From Minisyncoccia bacterium (lineage in GTDB: Bacteria > Patescibacteriota > Minisyncoccia > Phycocordibacterales > UBA1006), in the NCBI GenBank assembly GCA_044229075.1, contig JBGATS010000005.1, positions 1 to 63,455 on the forward strand: a DNA stretch of 63,455 bases, given 5' to 3'. Position 1 is the first letter of the stretch. Every line of letters starts with the position of its first letter. The translations under genes and the position numbers were made by a program. The notes below the pieces were generated by a model. The model was not told the origin of the DNA. It did no database searches and saw only the letters and a list, made by a program, of their open reading frames with translations. This document shows positions 2,998-62,482 of the stretch, piece after piece.

Positions 2998-4197
2998 TTA
3001 AAAAATGTTGTTAAATATAATATATGCGTCAGTTGCTTCCAGGATTGGTTTTTTGTTTTTAGGGTGTATATTTTCAATGTTGTTTCTTTTTAAAAAACCT
3101 TGGAATGAAGTTGAATTTCTTCCGACATTCAGTCTGTAGTCTTTTCCAAATCTATTAGATTTTGGAAACTTTTTTTCAAAGTCACTTATTTTTATCCTTG
3201 TATCACCTTCAGGAAAATGTTCCACAATTCTTCTAAGTATTTTTATGTATTTAGGTTCTTTTATTTGATATGATAACTCTCCTTTATTATAATGATGAAT
3301 GCGGTTATTTTTTACAAAAAATACTTTTTTACTCACGTGTTCAATAGTTTCGCCTTGATTATTATCTTGAATATAGAAATGAATTCTTTGTAAATGGTTA
3401 GTAATATCTGTTTTTGGTATAACACTTAATTCTGCAGTTTTTTCAGTTAATATACCTACATAGTCATTGTATTCTTGTTTCGTGTGTATTTTTTCGAATA
3501 TCTTTGTATTTAAATACTCCATTGATCTTTTTTCTGAATACTCGTCTGTATTAATTTTTGGTGCAGATGGTTTTAGGTCAAATTCCTCAAAAAGGGTATT
3601 CTTTTCTTTCAAGAAATCCAATGACTGAGTAATTGATTTTGTATATCTTTTTGTATAGAAATCTTCTTTATTAACAAAATCTTCTATATCTTTAGATATA
3701 GACATTTCAACACCACTTCTTTTTCCTTGTTTAAATAAAGTCTGAACATTTTTTTCAAATCCCAGGTCTATAACTTTTTGTACAATGTCACCTAAATCCA
3801 TACTTATATCACCATAATCAATCTTAAGAGGTGATAGATTTATATCAGATGAATTACCATTTAACTTAGTCTTAATATCAAAAAAGTCCCAATTTATTTC
3901 TTTTTCATTAAAAATGCCTAATGCTTTTGTTTTTTTCTCTAAAGTTGTAGTTAGTTTCTGTATTTTATCTATAATACTTTTTTCTAGTGTATTAAGATCA
4001 TTCTTTTCAGAAAGAAAATTATTAGTCTCTACTGTTATTCCTGAAACTAATGTAGCTCCGTCTATTTTTAAGAAATTCATATAATCACAAAAACTGACTA
4101 AGAATTCACGATCTGTTTGTGATAATATAACACGCTCGTACAGTGCATGTTCTTTTTGTAAAAGAAGACTACTTTCCATATGTATCAATCCTAGCAC
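2998..4197 (-). CDS. Hypothetical protein (AT-rich, 399 aa)
   Basis: Long uninterrupted ORF with no recognised motif. The C-terminal ~90 aa might be a winged-helix domain (speculative). Confidence 0.7.
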   Translation of the reverse strand: MLGLIHMESSLLLQKEHALYERVILSQTDREFLVSFCDYMNFLKIDGATLVSGITVETNNFLSEKNDLNTLEKSIIDKIQKLTTTLEKKTKALGIFNEKEINWDFFDIKTKLNGNSSDINLSPLKIDYGDISMDLGDIVQKVIDLGFEKNVQTLFKQGKRSGVEMSISKDIEDFVNKEDFYTKRYTKSITQSLDFLKEKNTLFEEFDLKPSAPKINTDEYSEKRSMEYLNTKIFEKIHTKQEYNDYVGILTEKTAELSVIPKTDITNHLQRIHFYIQDNNQGETIEHVSKKVFFVKNNRIHHYNKGELSYQIKEPKYIKILRRIVEHFPEGDTRIKISDFEKKFPKSNRFGKDYRLNVGRNSTSFQGFLKRNNIENIHPKNKKPILEATDAYIIFNNIF

Positions 4198-5470: not shown

Positions 5471-6136
5471 TTAATGTCCTAAAGTAAACCCGAACACTTT
5501 TTCTGGATATGGGAAAAGATTACGGATTGTTTCAAGAGTTCCCCCGGTAGTAGTAATATCATCAACAATAATAATGACATCATCAGTTTGTATGTTATGA
5601 ATTTTTTCGAGAGAAAATGCTCCGGTAATATTTTCAAATCGTTCAGCTCGATCAGTGATAAGGGCTTGTTTCTTGGTTTTTGTATTTTTACGTAAAAAGC
5701 TTTTTGTAACAACAGGAAGAGAGATCTTTTTTATAAGTATTTTCCGTAAAGCATCAATGATTATCTCTGTTTGATTGTATCCACGATCTAGGAACCGGGA
5801 ATAGTGTAGTGGAACAGGTACTAGAATAATTCTGGATGGCTGATGATAGGTTATAATACCCGAGAACCAACCGAGGATCATTCGAGTATGTTTTTCAAGG
5901 AGCGATTGTGCAAAAACTATATCCGGATAATTTTTTAAGTGATGAATGCATTTTGTTACTGACTCGTCTCGATATCGGTAGAGTGAAAATATCCATGGTT
6001 TCCCAAATTCTCGGGTAACCATAAAATTTTCAATACAATGGTTACAAATGTTTTTTGAAACATCCTCATTCCTACACACAACACATTGCGGAGGGAAGAA
6101 ATAGGAAAATATACTCTGGATTAACTGAGTAATCAT
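5471..6136 (-). CDS. comF: ComF family competence protein (Zn-ribbon + PRTase)
   Basis: CVVC...CNHC, VPVPLH, RGYNQTE and IIIVDDITTTGGTL. Divergent from pilM. Confidence 0.85.
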   Translation of the reverse strand: MITQLIQSIFSYFFPPQCVVCRNEDVSKNICNHCIENFMVTREFGKPWIFSLYRYRDESVTKCIHHLKNYPDIVFAQSLLEKHTRMILGWFSGIITYHQPSRIILVPVPLHYSRFLDRGYNQTEIIIDALRKILIKKISLPVVTKSFLRKNTKTKKQALITDRAERFENITGAFSLEKIHNIQTDDVIIIVDDITTTGGTLETIRNLFPYPEKVFGFTLGH

Positions 6137-6212
6137 GAATACAAGTGTATCATTTTTCTGGGTTCAATAGTAGGTATTGTTAGTTTTTTTGTTTTTATGA
6201 TAGAATAGTAAC

Positions 6213-7325
6213 ATGTTTAATGTTATTAAAAAATTATTTTCAAAACCTGACAGCGGAGTATTGTCAAGTTTTTCCTCGGGTTCATCAGGGAGTACTTGTG
6301 GAATTGATATTGGAGGTGGTTCAGTAAAAGTTGTTCAAGTAAAAGAAGAAAAAGGGAAAATTATTTTGGAAACCTATGGGGCTCTTTCACTTGCTCCATT
6401 TGCTCGTGAACCTATCGGAAAACCAGCACGTCTCTCTGATGTTGACACCGCAAAAGCAATTACCCAGCTCATCCAAGAGGCAAAAGTTACTGCAAAGAAT
6501 TTTGTCGTATCACTTCAATCAAATGCAATTTTGGTTTTTGTTATCACACTTCCACGTGCAAGTGCTCATGATTTGGGGACCATTCTTCCTAATGAGGCTC
6601 GAAAATACATTCCTGTCCCTATTACTGAGGTGGCGCTCGACTGGTTTATTATTCCTGACAAAGAAACATATGATGAAGAAGTATCAACACCGTCAACAAC
6701 AATTGAGGTTCTCGTGGTTGCAGTACGCAATGAAACATTTTCAAATTATCAATCAATTTGTACCCAAGTATCGATTCAAAATCCCATTTTTGAAATTGAA
6801 AGTTTTGCTACTATGCGATCTGTACTCTATCGAGAGATTGCGCCATTGCTCATTGTTGATGTAGGAACAGCGTTTACGAGTATGATGATTGTAGAATACG
6901 GAGTAATTAGAATTTTCCATATCGCTAATCGCGGATCTGCATTTGTTACGGAATCAATTATGAGAAGCCTGTCAGTACCATTCGAGAAAGCAGAAGAAAT
7001 GAAGTATAATGCAATAAAACACCCAGAAATTCAATCAACAATTGACGCAGCACATGAATACCTCATCGCAGAAATGAAGCGGGTCATGCTGGAGTATGAA
7101 CATGCGCATAGTCGTGTTGTTTCAAAAATTATCCTTTCCGGAGGGGGTGCGGTTGTAAATGGATTTATTACGAAGGTTGCAACAGAGACAGGGATTGAAA
7201 CAGTATTTGCAAACCCATTTGCAAAAGTAGAAGCTCCCGATTTTATGCGACCATTATTACAATCATCAGGACCGACATTCTCTGTTGCAACTGGTCTCGC
7301 ATTAAAAAATCTCTTGTCTTTTTAA
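6213..7325 (+). CDS. pilM: Type IV pilus assembly protein PilM
   Basis: GIDIGGGSVKVV, EARKYIP, VDVG and IILSGGGA (actin-like fold), ending in VATGLALK. Confidence 0.9.
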   Translation: MFNVIKKLFSKPDSGVLSSFSSGSSGSTCGIDIGGGSVKVVQVKEEKGKIILETYGALSLAPFAREPIGKPARLSDVDTAKAITQLIQEAKVTAKNFVVSLQSNAILVFVITLPRASAHDLGTILPNEARKYIPVPITEVALDWFIIPDKETYDEEVSTPSTTIEVLVVAVRNETFSNYQSICTQVSIQNPIFEIESFATMRSVLYREIAPLLIVDVGTAFTSMMIVEYGVIRIFHIANRGSAFVTESIMRSLSVPFEKAEEMKYNAIKHPEIQSTIDAAHEYLIAEMKRVMLEYEHAHSRVVSKIILSGGGAVVNGFITKVATETGIETVFANPFAKVEAPDFMRPLLQSSGPTFSVATGLALKNLLSF

Positions 7326-12728: not shown

Positions 12729-13313
12729 ATGAAAAAATTAGTAAAAATAACTGTATCAGTAATTGCAATATCTTTAATAAGTTATTTCGTGTATGGATAT
12801 TACCAAGAACAAAAAGCAGAACAACAAAGAATAGAACAAGAACAAAAAGCAGAACAACAAAGAATAGAACAAGAACAAAAAGCAGAACAACAAAGAATAG
12901 AACAAGAACAAAAAATAACGAAATTATTTATATCTCAATTAAATAAAAAGAACATAAACAATCTTCCATTGAGTGAATCTTATCCTTTTAGTGAACAAAA
13001 GTATAAGATTAATAATAATTGTATATGGCAATTTTATGTAAACGATAAATTGCTACATACTTTTATAGCAGATCTTGCTAATAAAAATATTGGTAAAAAT
13101 AAATATAACAATAAAAATTCAGATCTGCTTATTGGTATTGCTTATGTTGGATGGGCTGATGCATATTGTTTATATGATTTTTCACTCGAACTTCATAGAC
13201 CAAATAAAGAAGATTTCTCTGTTGAAAAACATTACTATTATAATCTTTTTGAACCTAATACTTTTATTCTAAACAAAGAAATGATGGATAATGCTGGAAT
13301 TGTTCTTTGGTAA
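12729..13313 (+). CDS. Hypothetical membrane-anchored/secreted protein with a QEQKAEQQRIE coiled-coil repeat
   Basis: AT-rich ORF with an N-terminal hydrophobic helix and an 11-aa repeat. Start is probably the ATG at 12729. Confidence 0.7.
   Translation: MKKLVKITVSVIAISLISYFVYGYYQEQKAEQQRIEQEQKAEQQRIEQEQKAEQQRIEQEQKITKLFISQLNKKNINNLPLSESYPFSEQKYKINNNCIWQFYVNDKLLHTFIADLANKNIGKNKYNNKNSDLLIGIAYVGWADAYCLYDFSLELHRPNKEDFSVEKHYYYNLFEPNTFILNKEMMDNAGIVLW
12804..12914 (+). repeat. Perfect 33-bp tandem repeat, 3.3 copies
   Basis: Unit CAAGAACAAAAAGCAGAACAACAAAGAATAGAA three times plus a partial copy. Confidence 0.95.
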
Positions 13314-46572: not shown

Positions 46573-47916
46573 ATGGCACAAAAAAAATCTCAAAAAAATA
46601 CTGCTAAGAAAAATACTCACACAGCACGTGTGACGAAAAAGGTGGTAGTAAAAAAGCCAGTAAAAGAGGTAGAAAAAAAGATGAGTCAAAAGAAGGGAAC
46701 ACCAATGACAAAAAAAATAGTTTCAAAAAAACTACCATCAAAAAAAATAGCAACAAAAACAGTTCCTAAAAAAGTAATTTCTTCCAAAAAAGCTACCACG
46801 AAAATACCACCACAACCAGTACGAGGTGTTACCAGAGAAGAAATCGAAGAGCGCCTCCAACTCCTCGTTGAAAAAGGAAAAAAACGAAGATTTGTTACGT
46901 ATGAAGAAATATTGAAATCGTTTCCAGATGTTGAAGACGACATTCTTTTTCTGGATGAACTCTATGTAAAATTGGCTGACGCAGGTGTTGATGTATTAGA
47001 GAGTGGGAATTTACTCTCAGTAGACATGCCACAATCACCAATTCTCGAAGAGTTGGTAGGGCGACGGTATGAGCGTGAACGCAGCACCTACGACTCTATT
47101 CAGATGTATTTGAAAGAGATTGGAAAATATCCACTCATCCGTGCAGCTGAAGAAAAAGAACTTGCGCGCCGTATTGCAGCAGGGGATGAAGAAGCAAAAA
47201 ACTTGCTTGCACAGGCTAACTTGCGACTCGTAGTTTCTGTAGCAAAAAAATATTCCTCAAAAAGTTCTGATCTCACACTCCTTGACCTCATTCAAGAGGG
47301 GAATATTGGGCTCTATAAAGCAGTCGAGAAATTTGATTGGACCAAAGGATTCAAGTTCAGTACCTATGCGATGTGGTGGATTCGTCAATCCATTACCCGT
47401 GCTCTGGCAGACCAGTCACGTACGATTCGTATTCCTGTACACATGGTAGAGACCATTTCAAAGTTTCGACAGGTAACGCGCCGTATGGAACAGGATCTCG
47501 GGCGAACACCGCTTCCCGAGGAAATTGCCCTGGAAATGGGGCTCGATGTTGAAAAGATTCACATGATTAACAAAATTAATCAGTCGACAATGTCGCTCGA
47601 AGACACGGTGGGTTCTGGTGATGACGATAAATCTACCCGCGGGGAATTCATTGCTGATGAAAAAATTCTTTCACCTGATCGAGAAGCATCAAAGAGAATC
47701 TTACAAGATCAAATTCGCGAAATTCTCGACGACCTTTCTGATAAAGAGCGAAAGATTATTGAAATGCGCTACGGGTTGGTAGACGGAATTAATCATACCC
47801 TGGAAGAGGTAGGTAAAGAATTCGGGGTTACCCGGGAGCGTATTCGTCAGATTGAAGCAAAAGTTCATGATAAAATGCGTGGTAATGATAAAATTATGAA
47901 ACTAAAAGATTATTAA
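46573..47916 (+). CDS. rpoD: Primary sigma factor RpoD with a Lys-rich N-terminal extension
   Basis: [60 protein letters not shown]. Confidence 0.96.
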
Positions 47917-53290: not shown

Positions 53291-53342
53291 TAGCATATTT
53301 TGATGAAAAGGCAAGGATTTTTTAGATAAATAGGGTAAGACA

Positions 53343-53370
53343 TTGACAATATGGCTGCATATGATATAAT
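53343..53370 (+). promoter_or_regulatory. Consensus sigma70 promoter of the second DGR-type target gene
   Basis: TTGACA-N16-TATAAT with extended TG. Confidence 0.75.
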
Positions 53371-53437
53371 AAAGTCAGTAGGAATTCTTGCTACTTTCAG
53401 CATTTGTTGAAAGACGTACCTTTTAAATAAATACAAA

Positions 53438-54157
53438 ATGGCTACTTACGAAAAAGTCGTTGGACTGTTAGGTGCAAACCTTGCGTCCTTTTTGGAGCTT
53501 GCGAAAAAGCTCTTGATTGATTGGGCAATCGAACCCAAAAAACTGTTGCATTTGTTTCAGAACATCCGCAAAGAAGACTTAATCGGTCTGGTTGACGGAA
53601 CACATGAAATAAAAGCAAAGACAGTTGAAGTTAAACCCGAAGCTGTACCAGGCGAAAAGTTCGACTTGTTGCTTGACCTTGGTGTTATCACTGTACCAGA
53701 TGATTTTGTTCACTCAACTCATTTGGCTACATTTAGTAAGAACAACCGTAAAAAGTTTTATTACTACCGTGACGACATTACTGACAAGAATTTCAACAAG
53801 GCAACCGTTCAATTAGTACCGGGTCGCAAGCTTCGCGTAAAAGCATTTAAGCAAACAGTTTCTGGCTACACCACCTCTGAAGAACGTATGGCGTTCCTTA
53901 AAACACAAAACAACATCTTCACAGGTGCAGTAGGCGCATCCTTAGTTTTCGAACAGAAACGTGACCTATTACCGAAAGGCAAACCGTACTCCTCCTTTGA
54001 TGAAAAGGAAGCTCTGTTGAAAGACTCTTGCGACATGCACGGCGTGCCGGTCGTGTACGCTCGCACTGATGGCGGCTTCTGGTTCGGCCTCGAAGGCTTC
54101 GAGTGTGACTGGTATGTCGACGGCTGTTTGCTTTGCTTCTGCGACGAAGAACTTTGA
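53438..54157 (+). CDS. DGR-type variable (target) protein whose VR does not match the local TR
   Basis: C-terminus HGVPVVYARTDGGFWFGLEGFECDWYVDGCLLCFCD resembles CPR DGR target C-termini as I recall them. 54031-54140 is 60% GC with only 12 A in 110 nt and is rich in NNC codons. A hairpin follows. Confidence 0.75.
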   Translation: MATYEKVVGLLGANLASFLELAKKLLIDWAIEPKKLLHLFQNIRKEDLIGLVDGTHEIKAKTVEVKPEAVPGEKFDLLLDLGVITVPDDFVHSTHLATFSKNNRKKFYYYRDDITDKNFNKATVQLVPGRKLRVKAFKQTVSGYTTSEERMAFLKTQNNIFTGAVGASLVFEQKRDLLPKGKPYSSFDEKEALLKDSCDMHGVPVVYARTDGGFWFGLEGFECDWYVDGCLLCFCDEEL

Positions 54158-54198
54158 CTCTTAAAAAATTGAATAAGGCTGTTAGACCCTTAGATTTT

Positions 54199-54232
54199 CG
54201 GCTTTGCTAAAGCAAAGCCGTTTTTTTTTTTT
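54199..54232 (+). terminator. GC hairpin plus T-tract after the second target gene
   Basis: CGGCTTTGCT-aa-AGCAAAGCCG followed by T12. Confidence 0.75.
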
Positions 54233-54269: not shown

Positions 54270-55508
54270 ATGAAACAGTCACAATTATTTACCAAAACAC
54301 GAAAGGAAGCCCCAGCAGACGAGGTTGCAAAAAACGCTCAACTCTTGATCAAGGCTGGGTTTATTTATAAAGAAATGGCTGGCGTATATACCATGTTACC
54401 ATTAAGTGTTCGTGTATTAAATAATATTGCTAACATTATACGTTCAGAAATGAACGCAGTTGGAGGTGTTGAAATGCAATCAACCGCATTACAAACAAAA
54501 GAAGTTTGGGATAAAACTCGTTGGAGTGATGAAATTGTAGATAATTGGTTTAAAACAACGTTGAAAAATGGAACAGAACTTGGACTTGCATTTACTCACG
54601 AGGAACCGCAAACCTCGATGATGAAAAATTTCATCCATTCATATAAAGATTTACCAGTATATCCGTATGATATTCGTAGTGTGTTCCGAAATGAAATGCG
54701 TGCGAAATCAGGAATAATCCGTGGGCGTGAGTTTTTTTGGAAAGCGCTCTATTCATTTTCTAAAGACAAGGCAGAGCATGACGCTTTTTATGAAAAAATA
54801 TCTCAAGCGTACAAAAATGTCTTTGAACAAGTAGGACTTGGTGAAAAAACTTATTTTACATTTGCGTCAGGTGGAACGTTTTCAAAATATTCGCACGAAT
54901 TTCAAACAATCTGTGATGCAGGCGAAGATATTATTTATGTGAGTCGCGAAAAAAATCTTGCTGTAAACAAAGAGGTTTATAATGATGAAGTTTTGGCAGA
55001 TCTTGGTTTACATAAAGCAGATCTGGTAGAGGAAAAAGCAGTAGAGGTTGGAAACATTTTTTCGCTCGGACATAAATTTTCAGAACCTTTGGAATTGGTA
55101 TATACTGATGCAGAAGGTAAGCCGCAAACAGTTTATATGGGTTCCTATGGAATTGGTATTTCACGATTGGTGGGTGTTATTGTAGAATTGTTATCTGACG
55201 AAAAAGGAATCATCTGGCCAGAATCAGTGGCGCCATTTGCAGTCCACTTGATACAGATTGGAAATGTGAGTGATCAGGCAGAAAACTTATATGCAGATTT
55301 AATAAGTAAAGGGATCGAGGTATTGCTCGACGATCGTGATGTATCAGTAGGTTCAAAATTTGCAGATGCAGATCTGATCGGAATTCCACATCGCGTGGTG
55401 ATTTCAGAAAAATCACTGGAAAAAGGTGGATTGGAATATAAAAAACGAAATGAATTAGAGGGTAAAATTATTACTGATAGTGATTTATTTGAAATTTTGA
55501 AGAAATAA
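54270..55508 (+). CDS. proS: Proline--tRNA ligase (short form without the editing insertion)
   Basis: MKQSQLF, FTHEE, FRNEMRAKSGIIRGREF, MGSYGIGISR and an anticodon-binding domain. Confidence 0.95.
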   Translation: MKQSQLFTKTRKEAPADEVAKNAQLLIKAGFIYKEMAGVYTMLPLSVRVLNNIANIIRSEMNAVGGVEMQSTALQTKEVWDKTRWSDEIVDNWFKTTLKNGTELGLAFTHEEPQTSMMKNFIHSYKDLPVYPYDIRSVFRNEMRAKSGIIRGREFFWKALYSFSKDKAEHDAFYEKISQAYKNVFEQVGLGEKTYFTFASGGTFSKYSHEFQTICDAGEDIIYVSREKNLAVNKEVYNDEVLADLGLHKADLVEEKAVEVGNIFSLGHKFSEPLELVYTDAEGKPQTVYMGSYGIGISRLVGVIVELLSDEKGIIWPESVAPFAVHLIQIGNVSDQAENLYADLISKGIEVLLDDRDVSVGSKFADADLIGIPHRVVISEKSLEKGGLEYKKRNELEGKIITDSDLFEILKK

Positions 55509-61036: not shown

Positions 61037-61672
61037 ATGAAATTTCCAAAAGTAACACAATTGGCAGCAAGCACTGCAGATCAAGAACTAAAAGCGGAAC
61101 TTGATCAATTGCTTAAACTTGCAGCAGACGTAGTCGCAAAAATCATTGAAGTCATTGGTAAGATTTTCATCAAAACAAATACCGTTATCAATGGCACACA
61201 ACTTGCCGAAGGCAGTAGTACTATTGAACGTCAATTGGAAAACTTCAAAGAAGTTGCCAAAGCACGTGGCATCACGAATGTTTGGACTGGTGATAACATC
61301 ACCAGATGGTTCCCAAACGAAAAGGTTTCAAAAACCATTGCTGGGCCCAGCCGATTATTACGTTTTATGAAAAGTATTACACACGCAAAAATCATTGACG
61401 GCTGCAAGCAGTTAAATGCTTACCAGGAATATGATTTGAGTGATGGAATCGAGCGTGCAACTGCATTGGTAGTTGCGGGTGAATTAGATAAAAAAGATAA
61501 TACAGGCATTATTATTTATCTGACAAACTGCAAAGACGGCACTCCGTGCAGGCTGGGCGTGTGGCGTTACGGTGACGGTGAGTTGCGCCTCGGTGTTAGC
61601 AAGGTCAATCCAGACTATGAGTGGAACGCTGGTTACGGTGTTCTGTGCAGCAACGAAAACTTGGATGTATAA
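61037..61672 (+). CDS. DGR target (variable) protein
   Basis: The 3' end contains the VR matching the TR at 61971. VR-encoded CRLGVWRYGDGELRLGVSKVNPDYEWNAGYGVLCS is consistent with a C-type-lectin-like DGR display fold (fold inferred). Confidence 0.92.
   Translation: MKFPKVTQLAASTADQELKAELDQLLKLAADVVAKIIEVIGKIFIKTNTVINGTQLAEGSSTIERQLENFKEVAKARGITNVWTGDNITRWFPNEKVSKTIAGPSRLLRFMKSITHAKIIDGCKQLNAYQEYDLSDGIERATALVVAGELDKKDNTGIIIYLTNCKDGTPCRLGVWRYGDGELRLGVSKVNPDYEWNAGYGVLCSNENLDV
61545..61654 (+). repeat. DGR variable repeat (VR)
   Basis: 97/110 identical to the TR; all 13 differences are at TR adenines (8 A>G, 3 A>T, 2 A>C). Confidence 0.97.
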
Positions 61673-61684
61673 TCCTTTGTATTG

Positions 61685-61728
61685 GACCCTTTGTAGCTTT
61701 GATTCTTGAATCTCGGCTGCAAAGGGTC
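61685..61728. other. Post-VR hairpin/cruciform (candidate retrohoming recognition element)
   Basis: GACCCTTTGTAGC...GCTGCAAAGGGTC (12/13) enclosing the inner palindrome GATTC-tt-GAATC, 30 bp after the VR. Confidence 0.65.
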
Positions 61729-61970: not shown

Positions 61971-62080
61971 CGTGCAGGCTGAACGTGTGGCGTAACGATG
62001 ACGGTAAGTTGAACCTCAATGTTAACAAGGTCAATCCAGACAATGAGTGGAACGCTGGTAACGGTGTTCTGTGCAGAAAC
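61971..62080 (+). repeat. DGR template repeat (TR)
   Basis: AAC/AAT-rich copy of the VR (32 A in 110 nt) lying between the target gene and avd/RT. Confidence 0.97.
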
Positions 62081-62089
62081 ACAAATTTT

Positions 62090-62114
62090 CTCTCCTATTT
62101 TTTATATAGGAGAG
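62090..62114. other. Hairpin immediately 3' of the TR, overlapping the avd stop
   Basis: CTCTCCTAT-N7-ATAGGAGAG followed by TTTTT. Confidence 0.55.
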
Positions 62115-62458
62115 TTTTTCGTTTCCAGTGTTTTTTCAATTCCTTTTTTCCATCCGCCCAACATTCGTCCAATTTCGTCCAGATCAGCAGAGATTTTTAT
62201 ATACTGATTGTTTGCCATGATTTTTCCTTCCCATGCGACAGATAGTAGAAACTTTACCATATCCAATTGTCCTGTTGCACGCACGATGGTATTTATTTTC
62301 TCAGTTGGGTTTTGATATGTCGCTTGATACACATAGGCAAGCATGTTCAAGAAATGTTGATCGATATTATTGCCCAGTGTGTATCGTGATGTTTTCGGAA
62401 AATTTTTCAAAATCTCCATCCATGCAATATAAGCGATTTTAGATTTTGGTAAAATCAC
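62102..62458 (-). CDS. avd: DGR accessory variability determinant (Avd-like four-helix bundle)
   Basis: FPKTSRYTLGNNID...LDMVKFLLSVAWE...LDEIGRMLGGW is the bAvd/four-helix-bundle signature; located between TR and RT on the opposite strand. Confidence 0.88.
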   Translation of the reverse strand: MILPKSKIAYIAWMEILKNFPKTSRYTLGNNIDQHFLNMLAYVYQATYQNPTEKINTIVRATGQLDMVKFLLSVAWEGKIMANNQYIKISADLDEIGRMLGGWKKGIEKTLETKNSPI

Positions 62459-62471
62459 TGGTAATTTCGCC

Positions 62472-62482
62472 GGGGGGGGGGG
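62472..62482. repeat. G11 homopolymer between the avd and RT starts
   Basis: Eleven consecutive G in a low-GC region. Confidence 0.9.

Follow-up and report, generated by a model that had tools for sequence, protein, structure and literature searches.

A gene for 239 amino acids in the DNA analyzed here, a single stretch of 63,455 nt that we call the window, is most probably an orphaned DGR target: its cognate TR/Avd/RT cassette appears to have been lost, and its VR (VR2) is most likely a frozen, drifting fossil. Because the cassette is missing behind the gene, VR2 looks like a frozen region and not like evidence of a second working system. The original prediction had offered a frozen orphan target as its fall-back, and this is now the best-supported reading, given the absent cassette, the changes in VR2 at non-adenine positions, and the constancy of VR2 across studies.

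The sequence features of the VR2 gene are confirmed and lie far beyond chance. The gene (53438–54157, + strand) occupies a site that is syntenic with one of its closest relatives (L003), between rpsB and a Pro-tRNA-synthetase-like gene. It was described as a stand-alone gene with its own consensus promoter about 7 kb from a DGR, and both points hold. A sigma-70-type promoter (53343–53370, + strand) has TTGACA and TATAAT at a spacing of 16 nt, with 12/12 hexamer matches and a TG extension, and 6.9 kb separate the end of the gene from the start, at 61037, of the target gene of the downstream DGR (DGR1). VR2 itself is 121 nt long (54024–54144, + strand), is homologous to the TR of the relatives, and stands in register with the TRs of L001, L003, and L085. 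The ORF ends in CLLCFCDEEL. Beyond VR2 follow a post-VR flank with three CTTNG motifs (54145–54198, + strand), a terminator hairpin with a 9-bp stem (54199–54220, + strand), and a T12 run (54221–54232), in agreement with the CLLCFCD ending and hairpin noted beforehand. The composition of the last ~110 nt, given beforehand as about 60% GC and 11% A with a run of NNC codons, is equally borne out: positions 54040–54150 have a GC fraction of 0.604 and an A fraction of 0.117 (0.42 and 0.32 in the remaining gene), and NNC codons make up 24/41 codons of the VR part (59%) vs. 49/195 in the gene body (25%). When all 63,345 segments of 111 nt in the window are compared, GC ≥ 0.60 occurs nowhere else than in the VR2 part, which is also the only place with A ≤ 0.12 on the + strand. 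As a separate observation, T on the + strand is at or below 12% only at 12779–12943 and 46603–46763 of the window.

Judged by its sequence, the VR2 gene is a genuine former DGR target and a member of a Patescibacteria family of ~230 aa. We found 368 homologues of about this length, all in Patescibacteria/Paceibacterota-type MAGs and metagenomes, while searches with the protein returned no Pfam family and no PDB sequence match. In the family alignment, residues ~70–195 of the protein body are well conserved, and the C terminus mixes an invariant scaffold (DADGxHRVPxVxAxSDGDFxFxLGxFExxWxxDxxLLCFCD) with fully variable positions, the hypervariable columns lying between the scaffold residues. The three closest homologues (85–86% identity) differ from the window protein almost exclusively in the C-terminal VR part. 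Hypervariability in orthologues, which the original prediction had set as its own test, is present at exactly the VR2 codons, in the family alignment as well as in contigs of relatives. The protein is laid out as an N-terminal helical part (residues 1–55), a linker, and an alpha/beta domain (70–236), and in a confident AF2 (AlphaFold) model (pLDDT 86.7) the VR falls on the final three beta strands of that domain. A fold search with this model against PDB and BFVD gave nothing at E ≤ 0.001. Weak matches to C-type lectin folds (5ao5_B, 5mgs_D, 8tnn_C, and a Ranid herpesvirus CTL, each with a probability of at most 0.35) agree with the proposal that CPR targets probably carry unrecognized C-Lec variants (PMC8144416).

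The closest relatives carry the cassette that the window lacks. L001, L003, and L085 share 92–93% nucleotide identity with the window gene ahead of the VR, and in each of them a TR, an Avd gene on the opposite strand, a poly-G tract, and an RT gene lie directly downstream of the target. Each TR lies about 470 nt downstream and differs from its own VR exclusively at TR adenines (19 mismatches in L001 and 12 each in L003 and L085, 0 elsewhere), which upholds the claim that VR2 is a DGR-type target belonging to a TR family other than that of DGR1 (TR1). The same target-TR-Avd-RT order recurs in the outgroups L005 and L008, at 47–61% identity. In L003 the correspondence with the window extends to both sides: upstream lie rpsB/tsf, as in the window, followed by the orthologue, the same hairpin, and a T7 run; the TR lies 471 nt 3′ of the VR and is succeeded by an antisense avd region, a G9 tract, and a gene for a 346-aa RT; and the promoter-like sequence found after T12 in the window recurs behind the RT and a T8 run. 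In L001 and L085 the target-TR-avd order is the same but the upstream context is unlike that of the window, and the homology of these two and of contigs X13 and X14 to the window starts at the −35 box (window 53341–53343). This shared homology edge and the differing upstream contexts suggest that the segment spanning promoter to RT acts as a transferable module. Upstream of the L001 target (~8710) are YidD, a methylase, and a terminase-like gene, where the window and L003 have rpsB/tsf; the matching edge in L085 is at ~135.

Contigs from other sequencing runs delimit the hypervariable core of VR2. In four such runs, contigs of L001-like strains align to the window through position 54028 and again from 54134, with 105 unalignable nt between, and enter the cassette after the flank. 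These breaks in alignment set the core at exactly 54029–54133 (+ strand). A search with the RT of the relatives returned a 90% match from another sample, in a different genomic context, and no match from the run that holds the window organism.

At the syntenic site, the window lacks the ~1.77-kb cassette from one T-run to the other. Its hairpin leads straight into T12 and GCAAAAATCACTCATTTCCTGTACCATG, and the equivalent flanks in L003 enclose a 1,763-nt TR-avd-RT segment between T7 (4024–4030) and T8 (5794–5801). The T-run after the VR2 terminator hairpin is thus the empty-site junction, at which the relatives have TR-Avd-RT. Since the cassette is present in 3/3 close relatives and in both outgroups used (L005 and L008), a single deletion in the window lineage is the parsimonious reading. 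A tree of the four close sequences leaves their branching order unresolved, and we infer that the event was a loss rather than a gain. The gene beyond the junction also differs between the two genomes: window positions 54270–55508 encode a 412-aa class II synthetase (tRNA-synt_2b plus HGTP_anticodon), and the L003 counterpart (5839–7284) is a 481-aa ProRS with an archaeal/eukaryote-type ProRS-C_1 domain, with conserved promoter-like sequence ahead of both genes. This difference may reflect non-orthologous displacement between close relatives.

VR2 carries the footprint of past adenine mutagenesis together with changes of another kind. Over 112–121 nt, it shows 17–21 differences from the TRs of the relatives at TR adenines and 17–18 at non-adenines. 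Where the TR has AAC or AAT codons, the window has ATG, GTC, TAC, CGC, TGG, GGC, GGC, TGT, TAT, and GGC, which we read as the mark left by adenine mutagenesis in VR2. At the non-adenine sites shared by the L001 and L003 TRs, VR2 differs at 14/85 and the VRs of L001 and L003 at none; 6.8 differences would be expected from the divergence of the gene body ahead of the VR (8%; P = 0.008). Four near-invariant residues (at least 90% conserved in the family) are altered in the window protein (W194L, G199D, S210T, and G219E), and none of the near-invariant residues is altered in the C-terminal part of the three closest orthologues. We infer that the non-adenine changes arose after the cassette was lost. 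Alternatively, a TR that had itself diverged could have passed on the excess while the cassette was still present, and 14 non-adenine mismatches to the nearest foreign TR lie inside the family range for linked VRs (1–17).

We found no template from which VR2 could still be copied in the DNA searched. A scan of the 63-kb window for an adenine-only template yielded none, with a best match at the level of noise (23 non-adenine mismatches); a very A-rich segment at 12790–12858 was flagged in the same scan. The run containing the organism (depth ~11) has VR2 on one clean Logan contig, and no second VR2-like contig is present at ≥80% identity. VR1, the VR of DGR1, likewise assembles cleanly there, and using TR1 as the query in the same run and procedure recovered VR1. 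Because this positive control worked, a TR2 of the usual 83–88% identity should have been detected. Two further studies contain contigs of 232–235 nt that match VR2 plus flanks without a single difference, so VR2 is identical across three independent studies at the contig level, where rare variants would be missed. In cassette-bearing relatives from other runs, the VR core is completely different from VR2. The proposal that the genome holds, or held, a second TR therefore stands in its past tense, supported by the TR-Avd-RT downstream of the relatives' targets, and finds no support in its present tense, as no such TR was found in the window or, at ≥80% identity, in the contigs of the run.

Targets without a local template are common in this family. 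We surveyed 80 loci from species-representative GTDB genomes, among which 71 were assessable and 7 could not be judged. A local TR (0–3 non-adenine mismatches) with an RT downstream is present at 36 GTDB loci, and 35/71 assessable loci are TR-less despite at least 2.5 kb of downstream sequence. Three genomes combine linked and TR-less loci; among these, one TR-less copy is a perfect trans target and two are not (11 and 16 non-adenine mismatches). In the trans case, L066 and L030 lie on separate contigs of one genome, and the L066 VR differs from the L030 TR at 10 adenines and 0 non-adenines. Live remote targets and orphans thus both occur in the family, and the window copy resembles the orphans rather than the live remote targets. 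We also considered whether lack of a local TR generally goes with greater degeneration in the family; comparison with linked members gave no support for this (Mann–Whitney P = 0.54), and the idea was rejected. In several relatives (loci L005, L009, L028, and L053), two tandem paralogous targets stand beside one TR, and both VRs have 0–1 non-adenine mismatches to it.

The neighboring DGR1 is real and belongs to a different lineage. Its target gene (61037–61672, + strand) contains VR1 at 61547–61655, which differs from TR1 (61973–62081, + strand) by 14 mismatches, all at TR adenines. Downstream are an Avd gene (62102–62458, − strand; PF22296 bAvd, E = 4e-17) and an RT gene cut by the contig end (62496–63455, + strand; PF00078 (RVT_1), E = 3.9e-25). 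This RT (RT1) has 57% identity to the RT of the L003 cassette (BLASTP, 178/313 identities), far from the 92–93% of the target genes, which indicates that DGR1 is not a relocated copy of the relatives' cassette. VR2 and TR1 have no alignable similarity, so DGR1 cannot rewrite VR2; the earlier statement that VR2 does not align to the local TR is correct for TR1 and for the rest of the window. Direct homology between the DGR1 target and the VR2 protein is nonsignificant (E = 5.9).

The two lineages nonetheless have several features in common. Both DGR1 and the relatives' cassette have the same gene order, a poly-G tract before the RT, and a post-TR hairpin of the form ...TTTCTCC-loop-GGAGTTTT. 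The poly-G tract lies between the start of avd and the start of the RT gene in both lineages and varies in length (G11 at 62464–62474 in the window, G9 at ~4792–4800 in L003, G11 at ~10370–10380 in L001). In addition, CTTNG motifs are enriched behind VRs family-wide, at 3.24 per 70 nt vs. 0.30 in random windows (P = 7e-71) and 0.14 after TRs. VR1 is followed by four (61655–61724) and VR2 by three (54145–54212); the motifs are often 8–15 nt apart and occur after linked and TR-less targets alike (loci L005–L084). Such common features explain the weak 3′ similarities between VR1 and VR2 noted at the outset, which are real in this broader sense. The CTTNG array is a candidate cis recognition element for DGR targets in CPR, and we know of no earlier description of it.

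Several other explanations of VR2 have to be weighed against loss of the cassette. VR2 might be a live remote target, diversified in trans by a TR2 elsewhere in the genome together with its own RT or with RT1/Avd1. The family contains at least one such trans target (L066/L030), half of its loci lack a local TR, VR2 retains post-VR CTTNG motifs and the hairpin, and the post-TR hairpin is common to DGR1 and the cassette of the relatives. We nevertheless consider this reading unlikely, given that no TR2-like contig at ≥80% identity exists in a run of depth 11 in which the positive control worked, that VR2 is identical in three studies, and that its scaffold residues are altered. The same evidence weighs against the original proposal of two coexisting DGRs or of one RT/Avd pair serving two templates in trans, as does the empty syntenic site; moreover, the window contains no TR2-like sequence, and 17–18 non-adenine differences separate VR2 from the TRs of the relatives. 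Rewriting by DGR1 itself, through its own TR1, Avd, and RT, has next to no probability: its proximity (6.9 kb) and the shared CTTNG motifs might suggest it, yet with nothing alignable between TR1 and VR2 there is no homology for cDNA integration, and it is to the TRs of the other cassette lineage that VR2 aligns in register.

The empty site itself can be questioned in two ways. The organism might possess the cassette, and the assembly might have passed over it in joining two contig ends at the T-run. For the run containing the organism, two contigs of the independent Logan assembly abut at 54219|54221, base 54220 is in neither, and the join is that of the window's own assembly, so that no independent contig spans the junction base. 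Such an artefact is quite improbable all the same, because neither contig end enters cassette sequence or leaves a loose end, the two depths are equal (11.2 and 11.4), and the right-hand contig begins with T12 instead of the RT 3′ end and T8 found in the relatives; a cassette would also bring a TR ~83–85% identical to VR2, and none is present in that run. The one-base gap at 54220, between the hairpin and T12, may stem from an assembly bubble or from errors that cluster behind the hairpin. Still less probable, in our estimate, is that the gene was never a DGR target in the window lineage and that the relatives gained the cassette later, the composition having come from a non-diversified ancestor. 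The unresolved tree of the four close sequences would permit this order of events, whereas the outgroups at 47–61% identity have the same target-TR-Avd-RT order, no relative has the window's residues at the AAC codons of the TR, a pattern that mutagenic homing would produce, and the contig has no second stretch as GC-rich and A-poor.

Under the favored explanation, loss of the cassette, the ancestor would have carried the TR, an antisense avd, the poly-G tract, and the RT gene directly behind the terminator of the target, and mutagenic retrohoming from this cassette, specific for adenines, would have rewritten the final ~105 nt of the gene. In the window lineage, the ~1.77-kb cassette would then have been deleted between the two T-runs, and the ORF would have stayed in place with its promoter, post-VR flank, and terminator. 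Since then VR2 would have been frozen in its last state, changing by ordinary point mutation, also at scaffold positions, where a TR would keep restoring the sequence. The gene is probably still expressed, yielding a binding protein of fixed specificity. A broader joint reading, which we advance as speculation and think rather doubtful, is that TR-avd-RT forms a self-contained 1.8-kb module with T-runs at its ends, which comes and goes behind resident targets, that the CTTNG array marks recipients across the CPR DGR clade, and that VR2 is “parked” and might be reactivated by a regained template or by RT1/Avd1 with a compatible TR elsewhere in the genome.

An orphaned VR2 involves no new mechanism. 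What it offers is a natural before/after pair of DGR loss, the same gene at 92–93% identity with and without a 1.8-kb cassette at the same site, and with it a view of a VR after the loss of its template, frozen, with its adenine footprint kept and its scaffold positions beginning to change. It also calls for caution, in that A-poor, GC-rich C termini in CPR genomes cannot be counted as active targets or as additional DGRs. With about half of the family loci lacking a local TR, orphaned or trans-served targets may form a large class that RT-centered surveys miss; targets not adjoining an RT were undetectable in the survey of Roux et al. 2021 (PMC8144416). The CTTNG array, for its part, is a candidate, open to testing, for the element by which CPR DGRs recognize their targets.

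Known systems resemble the window gene in part. In the DGR of Bordetella phage BPP-1 (mtd VR, TR, avd, brt), adenine-specific transfer from TR to VR takes place into the 3′ end of a binding-protein gene, and a hairpin lies downstream of the VR. The VR2 family resembles it in adenine-specific transfer into a gene 3′ end, and VR2 too is followed by a hairpin. The cassettes described here differ from BPP-1 in having avd antisense between TR and RT and a poly-G tract before the RT, and their post-VR flank carries CTTNG repeats; the window in addition is devoid of all machinery for VR2. Remote targets have been described alongside TvpA in Treponema denticola by Wu et al. 2018 (PMC5758913), and by definition show only A-to-N differences from a TR in the same genome (PMC5758913). 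Like the VR2 gene, those targets lie kilobases from the nearest RT; unlike VR2, which is 17–18 non-adenine differences away from the closest known TRs, they have a matching TR. CPR DGRs were reportedly treated by Paul et al. in 2017. They constitute “DGR clade 2” of Roux et al. 2021, in which cellular DGRs are restricted to CPR, the targets are short and without a recognizable domain or transmembrane segment, and the VR is C-terminal in a presumed novel variant of the C-type lectin (PMC8144416). The cassettes of the relatives fit this clade, and the window departs from it in presenting the target alone, without its cassette.
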